Shown one piece after another: positions 54,319 to 56,452 of a stretch of 64,000 bases of DNA. A program made the translations under genes and the position numbers. The notes under the pieces are model-generated. The model was not told the DNA's origin. It saw nothing but the letters and a program-made list of their open reading frames with translations, and ran no database searches. Position 1 is the first letter of the stretch. Every line of letters starts with the position of its first letter. The stretch comes from Planctomycetota bacterium (GTDB lineage: Bacteria; JAJVIF01; JAPKYR01). The stretch spans positions 2,603 to 66,602 of the forward strand of contig JAUWTM010000004.1 in assembly GCA_030614715.1 (NCBI GenBank). Reading direction: 5' to 3'.

Positions 54319-55059
54319 ATGAAGATTGCATGCTGCATTGTCGCCGCAGGAAAGGGACTACGTCTCGGTAAAGAGTACGCCAATGTCCCGAAGGCGCTCG
54401 TACCGATACTTGGCCGTCCGATGCTCTATTACGCGCTGAACGCGCTTGATAACTACGGTGGACTGACCGAGGGCTCAGGGATAGAAAGGTTCGTTGTGAC
54501 CGCACCTCCGGATTCTGTGGAGGATTTCACTGAGCACATTAAAGTCTGGGGATTTTCTGCACCCGTACAGGTGGAGGCGGGGGGAGAGACAAGGTCTGCG
54601 AGTGTTTATAAGGCGTTGAATGCCTTAAGAAGCGATCCGCCGGACTGGGTGTTGATCACAGACTGCGCACGTGTCTGCCTTACAGATGAAATGATCGGGC
54701 AGCTGCTCGACATCGCATTAAAAACCAGCCAGGCGGCTACGCTTGCACATCAGGCTGTCGATACTCTCAGGATTATTAACGATAACAGGATAAAAGATGA
54801 GGTCGACAGGTCGGTGGTGGCGTGTATCGAGACACCACAGATCTTCCCGTTCGAACGACTGCTCGATCTTCACGACCAGGCGGACCATGAAGGTATCCTT
54901 CCGGACGACACAACTCTTTTCACTCGCGCAGGAGAGACCGTGCATATCGTGTATCACGAACGCAGCAACATGAAAATAACTTATCCCGAGGATATCGGGG
55001 CAGTTGAGGGGATACTTTTCAGCAGGGGATGGCAGGACGCTGAAGAGGGAGAGGATTGA
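54319..55059 (+). CDS. ispD: 2-C-methyl-D-erythritol 4-phosphate cytidylyltransferase
   Basis: 246 aa; N-terminal IVAAGKGLRLG...PKAL nucleotide-binding motif; IspD-like throughout. Confidence 0.9.
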   Translation: MKIACCIVAAGKGLRLGKEYANVPKALVPILGRPMLYYALNALDNYGGLTEGSGIERFVVTAPPDSVEDFTEHIKVWGFSAPVQVEAGGETRSASVYKALNALRSDPPDWVLITDCARVCLTDEMIGQLLDIALKTSQAATLAHQAVDTLRIINDNRIKDEVDRSVVACIETPQIFPFERLLDLHDQADHEGILPDDTTLFTRAGETVHIVYHERSNMKITYPEDIGAVEGILFSRGWQDAEEGED

Positions 55060-56060
55060 TGGTCCGCAGGAAGCCTGAACCCGTCGAAACAATGTACCGG
55101 ACAGGCATCGGATACGATGTCCATAAGCTCGCTAGGGGTCGGAAGCTGATCCTCGGCGGGGTCAGGATCAAGCACGGCAAGGGACTTCTCGGACATTCCG
55201 ATGCCGACGTTCTCACTCATGCCGTGATGAGCGCTTTACTCGGTGCGATGGCAGCGGGAAGTCTAGGCGATCACTTTCCGGACGACGATCCTCAGTACAA
55301 GGATATTTCCTCGATGGATCTCCTCGAACGCGTCAGGATACTGATGGAGGAAGGCGGTTACGTTACTGAAAATATCGATACGATGGTCATCTGCGACGCT
55401 CCGAAACTGGCTCCGTTCTTTGAGCATATGAGATTGAACCTTTCGGTGGCGTTACGTGTTCCAATAGAGTGCGTGTCGATCAAAGCGACCAGCACCGAGG
55501 GACTGGGATTCACTGGAACGGGAGACGGCATCGCCGCACAGGCGATATGCCTTCTGAAAATACCCGGCGAGGAGACTGAACAGCCTGCAAAGACGAAAAA
55601 AACCGTAAAAAAGAAGAAAAAAGAGAAGGTCCCGCCTCTACCGGAAATTCAGCCCGGCGAGATCACTAAATGCATCGTCAGAACTGACGGCGCATGTATT
55701 GGAAATCCCGGTCCGTGCGGTATCGGAATTGTCTTCGAAAGGCCTGACGGAACTGCGATCGGGCGATTGTCGGAGGCGATCGGGGAGCATACCAGCAACC
55801 AGGCTGAATACCTAGCCGCGATCAGGGCTGCAGAGATATGTATTAAATGGGGTGTTGAGGAAATTCTGCTTTACACTGACAGTGAGCTTATGGCAAAGCA
55901 GGTAAATGGTTCATACAGAGTGAAGAACCCGGGGATATTAAAATTATACCGGAAGCTTATTGTCCGATTAAGTAAGTTTAAGGAGTTCAGAATGCGGTCC
56001 GTACCGCGTCTGGAAAATATCGAAGCGGACAAGCTGAGTAAGTTGGCCTTGAAAAAGTAG
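55059..56060 (+). CDS. ispF: 2-C-methyl-D-erythritol 2,4-cyclodiphosphate synthase fused to a C-terminal RNase-H-like domain
   Basis: N-terminal 160 aa is a strong IspF match (GIGYDVHKL...GHSDADVLTHA...GFTGTGDGIA). A K-rich linker (KTKKTVKKKKKEK) follows, then an RNase-H fold with DEDD-type residues (TDGACIGNPGP; NQAEYLAAI; YTDSELMAKQ; ENIEADKLS). TGATG overlap with ispD. Confidence 0.8.
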   Translation: MVRRKPEPVETMYRTGIGYDVHKLARGRKLILGGVRIKHGKGLLGHSDADVLTHAVMSALLGAMAAGSLGDHFPDDDPQYKDISSMDLLERVRILMEEGGYVTENIDTMVICDAPKLAPFFEHMRLNLSVALRVPIECVSIKATSTEGLGFTGTGDGIAAQAICLLKIPGEETEQPAKTKKTVKKKKKEKVPPLPEIQPGEITKCIVRTDGACIGNPGPCGIGIVFERPDGTAIGRLSEAIGEHTSNQAEYLAAIRAAEICIKWGVEEILLYTDSELMAKQVNGSYRVKNPGILKLYRKLIVRLSKFKEFRMRSVPRLENIEADKLSKLALKK

Positions 56061-56083
56061 GGCGGATTCATATACTAGATAAT

Positions 56084-56452
56084 GTTGGGGGAGCAGGCAA
56101 GGCGATCGCCTTCGTATGCTCTTATGAGCGTGCGGGGGAGGAAAGTCCGAGCACCGAAGGGCAGGACGCTGGGTAATACCCAGGCGGCGCGAGCCGATGG
56201 AAAGTGCAAAGAAACCAGACCGCCCGGATCTCGGTCCGGGTAAGGGTGTGAAGGTGAGTTAAGAGCTCACCGGCGGCCTGGCGACCGGTCCGTGTCTAGT
56301 AAACCCCGTCCGGTGCAAGTCAAATCGGGAATATAGAGCGGCCCGTTCTTTCCCGAGGTAGACGCAAGAGGCAGGCGGTAACGTCTGTCCCAGATAGATG
56401 ATCGTCACCCGAAAGGGACACAGAACTCGGCTTATGGTCGGCTCCCCCACGT
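56084..56452 (+). ncRNA. rnpB: RNase P RNA (bacterial type A)
   Basis: P4 5-prime element GGGAGGAAAGTCCGAGCAC; P10-12 element GGGTGTGAAGGTGAGTTAAGAGCTCACC; P4 3-prime element ACAGAACTCGGCTTA with compensatory changes; P1 stem GGGGGAGC/GCTCCCCC. Confidence 0.8.

Follow-up and report, generated by a model that had tools for sequence, protein, structure and literature searches.

We analysed a 64,000-nucleotide (nt) stretch of the genome of a Planctomycetota bacterium (assembly GCA_030614715.1, contig JAUWTM010000004.1, positions 2,603 to 66,602), hereafter the window. It contains a single open reading frame (ORF), ispF::rnhA, in which IspF, the 2-C-methyl-D-erythritol 2,4-cyclodiphosphate (MEcPP) synthase of the methylerythritol phosphate (MEP) pathway, is joined to a type 1 RNase H domain, and which is directly followed by rnpB, the gene for RNase P RNA. 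The fusion is a real, conserved architecture of two well-known enzymes: its two-domain ORF is found again in dozens of independent assemblies, which excludes chance. We consider it likely that two neighbouring housekeeping genes fused at a locus pinned to rnpB to give a bifunctional protein whose halves act independently; the enzymatic activities, the independence of the two domains, the order of the evolutionary events and the use of the rnpB promoter are what we infer from the comparisons below. An earlier note, made from the letters of this DNA, knew of no IspF-RNase H fusion. Our literature search found no description of one, and the architecture is so far unpublished.

Two domains in one conserved frame

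The fusion gene lies on the forward strand at 55059-56060 and encodes 333 residues from an ATG at 55059; an alternative TTG start at 55056 would give 334. The frame is uninterrupted from either start to the stop codon, and an identical 333-residue protein (P0002) is present in the public record. Public records name the fusion proteins only "2-C-methyl-D-erythritol 2,4-cyclodiphosphate synthase".

The IspF domain (55098-55556, forward strand; residues 15-167) is complete, as the earlier note had proposed: the Pfam family YgbB/IspF (PF02542) matches with 204.4 bits against a cut-off of 26.7, over profile positions 2-154 of 155 and thus at full length. Its metal ligands D21, H23 and H55 do not vary among 19 aligned fusion proteins. 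We take them to correspond to the Zn ligands Asp8, His10 and His42 (E. coli numbering), mapped by the motifs GxDxH and HA. In a Foldseek comparison, the IspF half matched 5iwx_A with an E-value of 6e-24, a template-modelling (TM) score of 0.95 on the target, a root-mean-square deviation (rmsd) of 1.0 and 51% identity; identity to solved IspF structures in general was 46-51%.

The C-terminal part is a type 1 RNase H domain of the RVT_3, or Sto-LC11-Rv2228c, type (55671-56045, forward strand; residues 206-330), and the ORF stops four residues past it. Both relevant Pfam profiles scored over their cut-offs: RVT_3 (PF13456) at residues 210-330 with 55.2 bits against 21.6, and RNase_H (PF00075) at residues 206-284 with 38.9 bits against 25.8. 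The motifs that had suggested an RNase H fold behind a Lys-rich linker (TDGAC, NQAEYLA, YTDSEL and ENIEADKLS) are all present and hold the four acidic DEDD residues: D211 (55686-55688), E251 (55806-55808), D275 (55878-55880) and D325 (56028-56030), all on the forward strand. The identical residue stands at each of these places in the 19 aligned fusion proteins. Across 38 aligned RNase H domains, D211, E251 and D275 never vary and D325 is at least 90% conserved, and the flanking motifs (DGA, NNxAEY, DS, R..N..AD) are conserved as well.

Solved structures place the domain within its subtype. The best Protein Data Bank (PDB) match by both sequence and fold is the RNase H part of the mycobacterial RNase HI-CobC protein (Rv2228c/MSMEG_4305, also called RnhC; 3hst), which belongs to the same RNase HI subtype. 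Sequence matches reached 8.9e-22 for 3hst and 1.6e-19 for 3u3g, and the DEDD residues of the fusion align with identical residues in both. Modelled alone, the domain had a predicted local distance difference test (pLDDT) score of 97.6, and by Foldseek it fitted 3hst (the N-domain of Rv2228c; TM 0.89, rmsd 1.2), 4e19 (Halobacterium RNase H1; rmsd 0.9) and 4h8k (LC11-RNase H1 with its hybrid; TM 0.87), for an overall TM of 0.87-0.89 and rmsd of 0.9-1.4. The fit to E. coli RNase HI was poorer (TM 0.72-0.75, rmsd about 3). Like Sto-RNase HI, LC11-RNase H1 and Halobacterium RNase H1 (2ehg, 3u3g, 4h8k, 4e19; RVT_3), the domain has a minimal fold of about 130 residues with the DEDD site, and it matches these stand-alone enzymes with TM 0.80-0.89, rmsd 0.9-2.1 and 31-36% identity. 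Whereas those enzymes are single-domain or have a short N-terminal extension, the window domain is the C-terminal half of a metabolic enzyme.

The fusion protein is the sole IspF in the genome, which is 87% complete, and its gene gives the sole RVT_3 or RNase_H match, hence the only type 1 RNase H found. One RNase HII gene, ispG, ispH and rnpA sit elsewhere in the genome. Both halves look functional, judging by their intact sites. The N-terminal domain would make MEcPP in the MEP pathway, a role supported by its being the only ispF in the genome, by the adjacent ispD and by the presence of ispG and ispH. The C-terminal domain would cut the RNA strand of RNA:DNA hybrids in a metal-dependent manner, since its site is intact and no other type 1 RNase H was found in the genome. 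The annotation therefore hides the sole RNase HI of a whole uncultivated lineage, and surveys would wrongly score RNase HI as absent.

Between the two domains lies a Lys-rich linker of 38 residues (55557-55670, forward strand; residues 168-205), of which residues 174-188 have a pLDDT below 50 and are predicted to be disordered. The model of the whole protein shows two confident domains with a predicted TM score (pTM) of 0.52 and predicts neither a fixed mutual orientation nor an inter-domain contact. Linkers within the window's class measure 37-49 residues with net charges from -8 to +8; outside the class, the linker is about 12-17 residues in one genome (G046) and about 100 in another (G039). 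A tether so variable in length and charge speaks against conserved binding of nucleic acids and against a fixed interface between the domains. We had considered the Lys-rich linker as a conserved nucleic-acid-binding element and rejected this, as it is basic in family f1 only and acidic or neutral elsewhere.

We also observed short motifs within the linkers. Those of the f2/f4 type (P0037-P0042, P0045, P0047) share [S/D/H/G/V]-L-F followed by acidic residues, for example LFDDDTPIE, which is reminiscent of clamp-binding motifs or of the acidic tip of single-stranded-DNA-binding protein. Family f1 linkers lack this motif and have a Lys-rich run and PPLPxI(K/R)PGE instead.

The same two-domain protein was found in more than 40 protein clusters at 38-71% identity, drawn from ENA, JGI, NCBI and Logan assemblies. 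We searched 13 other genomes of the window's class (G001-G013), which with the window genome (G000) make 14 class genomes in all. Nine of the 13 relatives (G003, G006-G013) carry the entire fusion as one open frame with no stop. In G001 and G005 a contig breaks off within the IspF domain, and what remains spans the IspF C-terminus, the linker and RNase H; in G002, the linker is where two contigs break; and for G004 the search gave just the IspF part, truncated by the start of a contig. No stop codon separates the domains in any class genome searched. The fusion also occurs in two genomes outside the class, G039 and G046. An Atlas cluster of 70 fusion proteins is assigned to Planctomycetota for both of the members with a known phylum (n = 2). 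A search of genome contigs for related loci returned unfused IspF genes only, mostly from Clostridia.

The rnpB junction and the COG1579 module

rnpB occupies 56090-56449 on the forward strand and is of class A (Rfam RF00010, 260.6 bits against a gathering threshold of 100, model positions 1-367). It gives the one RF00010 match in the genome and is thus the sole copy found. The match begins 29 nt past the fusion stop codon, and the predicted transcription start (about 56082-56084, at the foot of helix P1) falls about 22-24 nt past it, close to the 24 nt or so estimated in the earlier note. The predicted promoter is sigma-70-like and lies at 56049-56076 on the forward strand: TTGAAA at 56049-56054, a spacer of 16 nt, and TATACT at 56071-56076. 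With 10 of 12 matches it is the best sigma-70-like site in 3.7 kb, and its -35 hexamer consists of the codons of the terminal Leu-Lys of the fusion ORF. TTGAAA-16-TATACT is kept in three relatives (G003, G006, G008), with a near copy in G007, and the spacer around it varies.

To place this junction, we compared the coordinates of RF00010, PF13456 and PF00075 matches in 151 genomes, 137 of which are outgroups from 137 different families; adjacency was counted by hand from the coordinate tables. Among the 71 outgroups with both an RVT_3 RNase H and rnpB, the RNase H gene is directly upstream and co-oriented in 35, and in two more it lies at about 500 nt (37). The distances from stop codon to rnpB range from -134 to +202 nt, with the two further cases at about 450-500 nt. 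By comparison, not one of the 35 E. coli-type RNase HI genes lies next to rnpB. The adjacency belongs to the RNase H lineage, not to IspF, and is much older than the fusion. Our literature search for an rnhA-rnpB linkage found no description; we saw it drawn for single genomes (PMC3372290) and found no text that presents it as a rule.

A promoter-like site ending 3-16 nt before rnpB scored at least 9 of 12 at 14 of 44 junctions, against 1 of 220 control positions. In several outgroups, G048, G124 and G128 among them, the -35 hexamer falls in the codons of a conserved C-terminal L-A-N-x-A-I motif. The window rnpB probably has a transcript of its own, initiated at its predicted promoter and with a 5' end at or close to the predicted start. 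Because this promoter overlaps the preceding ORF, the pair would be hard to separate; the overlap is a sufficient, though not proven, reason for the lasting synteny of rnhA and rnpB. The window rnpB is in this respect like other non-coding RNA genes with a promoter inside the preceding ORF, its predicted -35 hexamer being the last RNase H codons. As a housekeeping ribozyme with its own predicted start just past the stop codon, it is unlike regulatory small RNAs derived from a 3' untranslated region. A terminator scan found no terminator between the fusion gene and rnpB, so read-through is possible.

Within the class, rnpB directly follows the fusion gene in G000-G003 and G005-G010. The adjacency has been lost in several fusion lineages (G011, where rnpB is 8.7 kb from the fusion gene, G039, G046 and P0046). 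In G012 and G013 (L013/L014), rnpB lies beside the 5' end of a short ORF, probably ispD, on the opposite strand, which is the arrangement that an inversion of the ispD-ispF::rnhA segment relative to rnpB would give.

At 24 of the 36 outgroup loci, RNase H is immediately preceded by a gene for a CT398-type protein with a coiled coil and a C4 zinc ribbon (COG1579). COG1579 was found in 100 of the 137 outgroup genomes. By hand tally, the complete series COG1579, RNase H, rnpB is present in 31 of these 100, COG1579 is followed by rnpB with no intervening RNase H in about 20, and COG1579 is followed by RNase H without rnpB in about 13. rnpB thus looks like a regular last element of the COG1579 operon in many families: among the sampled families with COG1579 and/or Sto-type RNase HI genes, it ends that unit in about half, so the placement of RNase P RNA is not random, and its promoter or even its 5' end is often inside the preceding ORF of such units.

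The window follows this order only in part. Its RNase H is directly before rnpB, and no gene with CT398_CC and Zn_ribbon_9 domains stands upstream; the place of COG1579 is taken by ispD and the IspF domain. Searches with PF02591 and PF24481 gave no COG1579 match in G000 or in any of the 14 class genomes (a pair of them 99% complete), and none over the cut-off in G039 or G046.

Parts of this neighbourhood are known. The order NIF3, COG1579 (FlgZ/HP0958/CT398), rnhA behind dnaG-rpoD is the same as in the outgroup loci here. In contrast to our findings, the papers on it do not treat rnpB as a regular member, and in the window COG1579 is gone, with yacL-ispD-ispF in its place. Pereira et al. 2011 (PMC3372290, Fig. 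3B legend) placed rnhA next to flgZ homologues from several phyla and, in Borrelia, showed RNase P RNA following such a homologue. NIF3, rpoD and dnaG are all that their text takes up, and Borrelia's RNase P RNA is called a unique gene. COG1579 and COG0328 (RNase HI) are among the COGs that co-occur with NIF3 (PMC8469502), and proteins of the CT398 family are predicted to bind RNA polymerase beta' (bioRxiv 10.64898/2026.07.15.738315). The breadth of the COG1579-(rnhA)-rnpB arrangement is the more interesting by-product of this analysis: it offers an entry point to the function of COG1579/CT398 and to a tie of rnpB expression to the dnaG-rpoD-linked cluster.

COG1579 immediately precedes a co-oriented rnpB, without an RNase H gene in between, in G016, G036, G041, G047, G063, G069, G075, G077, G078, G087, G093, G096, G103, G105, G107, G110, G127, G137, G143 and G148. 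In G145 (C3:70388-71812), an E. coli-type RNase HI (PF00075, E-value 8e-36) follows COG1579 in place of the RVT_3 type, and one RNase HI type may have been swapped for the other at the same position. Unusual RNase H architectures were noticed at L133 (G144:C132:72400-75000), L141 and G054:C57:17777-18568. An ORF of 504 residues in G144 has about 370 unassigned residues before its rnpB-adjacent RNase H domain, G054 holds two tandem RVT_3 domains in one frame of 350 residues, and two rnpB-adjacent RNase H ORFs carry DUF433.

Origin of the fusion and alternative readings

We propose that the fusion arose at a junction where two conserved gene blocks met. One would be an old, widespread module in which a COG1579/CT398 zinc-ribbon gene is followed by RNase HI and rnpB; RNase H would be its last protein gene, held at rnpB by the overlap of the promoter with its last codons. 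An ancestor of the lineage would have lost the COG1579 gene, the second block, yacL-ispD-ispF, would have moved to a place directly upstream, and loss of the ispF stop codon would have joined the two frames. A disordered tether of variable sequence would link the domains, which most likely work independently, and rearrangement would later have removed rnpB from some descendants. The gene order yacL-ispD-ispF::rnhA is common to all fusion lineages (the window, L096, L140, L141 and L142). In the window, the yacL-like gene for a membrane PIN-TRAM protein (Pfam PIN_4, PIN and TRAM) is at 53116-54213 and ispD, for 4-diphosphocytidyl-2-C-methyl-D-erythritol (CDP-ME) synthase (Pfam IspD, 139.8 bits), at 54319-55059, both on the forward strand. 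The earlier note had offered two explanations, a moonlighting fusion or an RNase H recruited to the MEP operon. The fusion is real; in place of recruitment, the comparisons show an RNase H anchored before rnpB, as a rule behind COG1579, to which yacL-ispD-ispF would have come.

A single fusion event is the simplest reading of the sequences. The tree of RNase H domains was poorly resolved and placed the fused rows in three groups, on unsupported branches. A constrained tree with the 21 fused rows as one clade had a log-likelihood 7.6 better than the free quick tree and was not rejected by the approximately unbiased (AU) test (p = 0.615). We also considered independent origins of the fusion; the three-way split rests on unsupported branches, the AU test favours one clade, and separate origins are not shown.

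Two known fusions offer comparisons. MSMEG_4305/Rv2228c is the best analogue: in both proteins, an RNase HI is joined to an unrelated small-molecule enzyme through a variable linker. They differ in that the partner is a histidine phosphatase at the C-terminus in the Rv2228c type and IspF at the N-terminus in the window, and they are independent events in different lineages. Rv2228c/MSMEG_4305 presumably also stands behind a COG1579 gene (Rv2229c/MSMEG_4306), so that COG1579 is retained in mycobacteria and missing in the window genome. The paper on the MSMEG_4306 structure makes no mention of RNase H or RNase P. The domains of RNase HI-CobC are reported to be functionally dissociated in vivo and its linker is variable, and the authors concluded that the fusion was probably fixed by drift (PMC7466739). 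The bifunctional IspDF of Campylobacter jejuni (1w55) and Helicobacter pylori (8xhu) is a precedent for an IspF fused to a neighbouring gene, and the window IspF is canonical. Unlike in IspDF, the window ispD is a separate, overlapping ORF with its own stop, and the partner of IspF is a nucleic-acid enzyme from outside the pathway.

Several observations weigh against a neutral junction fusion with an independently transcribed rnpB. A clear sigma-70 promoter is present at only about one-third of junctions, and the ORF overruns the 5' end of rnpB at 13 of 37 outgroup junctions; from these two facts, co-transcription and processing may be the rule elsewhere. The fusion has been retained for long, possibly across more than one phylum-level group, which could be a sign of advantage. 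Finally, the fusion and COG1579 are perfectly anti-correlated. The events behind this are few and not independent: IspF could have taken over the partner role, or the pattern could equally be a by-product of one rearrangement.

The first of these possibilities can be put as a rival explanation, in which the fusion is adaptive and a tethered, trimeric IspF core stands in for the COG1579/CT398 partner that was lost (proteins of the IspF family form trimers). The minimal RNase HI, which lacks both a hybrid-binding domain and a basic protrusion, would gain from the fusion a multivalency or localisation otherwise supplied by that RNA-polymerase-associated factor. This would fit the position of COG1579 as the usual upstream neighbour of RVT_3-type RNase H (24 of 36 loci), its presence in 100 of 137 outgroup genomes and in no fusion-bearing genome, and the predicted binding of the CT398 family to RNA polymerase beta' (bioRxiv 10.64898/2026.07.15.738315). 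It would also fit the persistence of the fusion through deep divergence (38% identity), the Lys-rich f1 linkers, and the short "LF + acidic" motif shared by the f2/f4 linkers. However, the anti-correlation rests on perhaps one to three events, and one rearrangement with loss of COG1579 accounts for it equally well; the linkers vary in length and charge, the model predicts no contact between the domains, and many genomes have an RVT_3-type RNase H without COG1579 adjacent. Nothing found in this analysis shows cooperation of the two activities. We regard the adaptive explanation as unlikely.

A broader version appears more doubtful still. In it, Sto-type RNase HI and COG1579/CT398 would be a transcription-linked surveillance pair for RNA:DNA hybrids, encoded in an operon that ends in rnpB across much of the bacterial tree. 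In the fusion lineages, the tethered trimeric IspF core would have assumed the partner role of the lost COG1579, making the fusion a functional replacement.

It is also improbable that the adjacency is kept by an RNase H function tied in cis to rnpB, either R-loop removal at a highly transcribed, GC-rich gene or maturation of the RNase P RNA precursor. The adjacency is very widespread and specific to the RVT_3 lineage (35 of 71 against 0 of 35), the two genes never differ in orientation, and the distances between them are tiny or negative, all of which would fit a cis role. A diffusible enzyme, however, needs no coding position beside its target. COG1579 stands directly before rnpB in about 20 genomes without an intervening RNase H, which indicates that the operon tail, and not RNase H in itself, is the conserved position. 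Roughly half of the RVT_3 genes lie away from rnpB, the adjacency is gone in four fusion lineages (G011, G039, G046 and P0046), and rnpA is present, so that a canonical holoenzyme is expected. The presence of rnpA was also the ground for rejecting the idea that the RNase H domain replaces the RNase P protein.

A degenerate, non-catalytic RNase H-like (RVT_3) module, retained for binding only, is very improbable. Pfam RVT_3 takes in inactive and retroelement-derived copies as well, and the PF00075 match spans only the N-terminal half of the domain. Against this, the four DEDD residues, the flanking motifs and the fold are all conserved, the closest solved relatives were deposited as RNase H or RNase HI enzymes and the papers on them report RNase H activity, and the genome has no other type 1 RNase H.

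That the fusion is an artefact (a misassembly, frameshift error or chimeric join in the low-complexity Lys-rich linker) has a negligible probability: the AAG/AAA-rich linker does break assemblies, and the contigs of G001, G002, G004 and G005 end in or near it, but the ORF is intact in dozens of independent assemblies whose linkers, non-repetitive ones included, differ widely in sequence and length, the G001 and G005 fragments cross the linker into RNase H, and no stop lies between the domains in the class genomes searched.

A fusion of two neighbouring genes whose products act independently, next to rnpB, is therefore the reading we prefer. Such a fusion would most likely be a neutral "Rosetta stone" false positive, and it counsels caution in inferring functional links from domain fusions.

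Neighbouring genes

The ispD stop codon (TGA) and the ATG start of the fusion gene overlap by one base (TGATG), an arrangement suggestive of translational coupling between the two genes. Between yacL and ispD lies a terminator-like hairpin (54223-54253, forward strand) of nine pairs, seven of them GC, followed by T10. Given this strong terminator-like structure, ispD-ispF::rnhA is probably a transcription unit separate from yacL.

A gene matching the Pfam family His_Phos_1 is located at 52157-52834, 2.2 kb upstream of the fusion gene. The earlier note had pointed to this CobC-like phosphatase gene in view of the mycobacterial RNase H-CobC fusion. The gene is present as described; the suggested link to the fusion was not supported. 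The fusion gene has no C-terminal His_Phos_1 domain of the Rv2228c type, and His_Phos_1 precedes yacL only within the family, in G000 and G006. It is absent at the other fusion lineages, and we rejected the idea that it survives from an RNase H-CobC link; apart from the shared RNase H subtype, nothing supports a tie to the mycobacterial fusion. Other genes (secretin, CarD and ClpC) take its position in G011, G046 and the P0046 contig. A secretin-like protein of 867 residues with a long acidic C-terminal tail is also encoded upstream in the window (49503-52106, reverse strand), and a secretin lies near the G011 fusion too (L144:227-2611).

Downstream, a GC-rich hairpin (56475-56493) separates rnpB from the next gene, which starts with an ATG at 56503. 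Its T-run is on the reverse strand only, and its role as the rnpB 3' end is uncertain. The gene itself, right after rnpB (56503-58974, forward strand), encodes 823 residues with a signal- or lipoprotein-like start, long low-complexity stretches rich in Gly, Glu, Asp and Pro, and a poly-Glu tail, and it gave no Pfam match.

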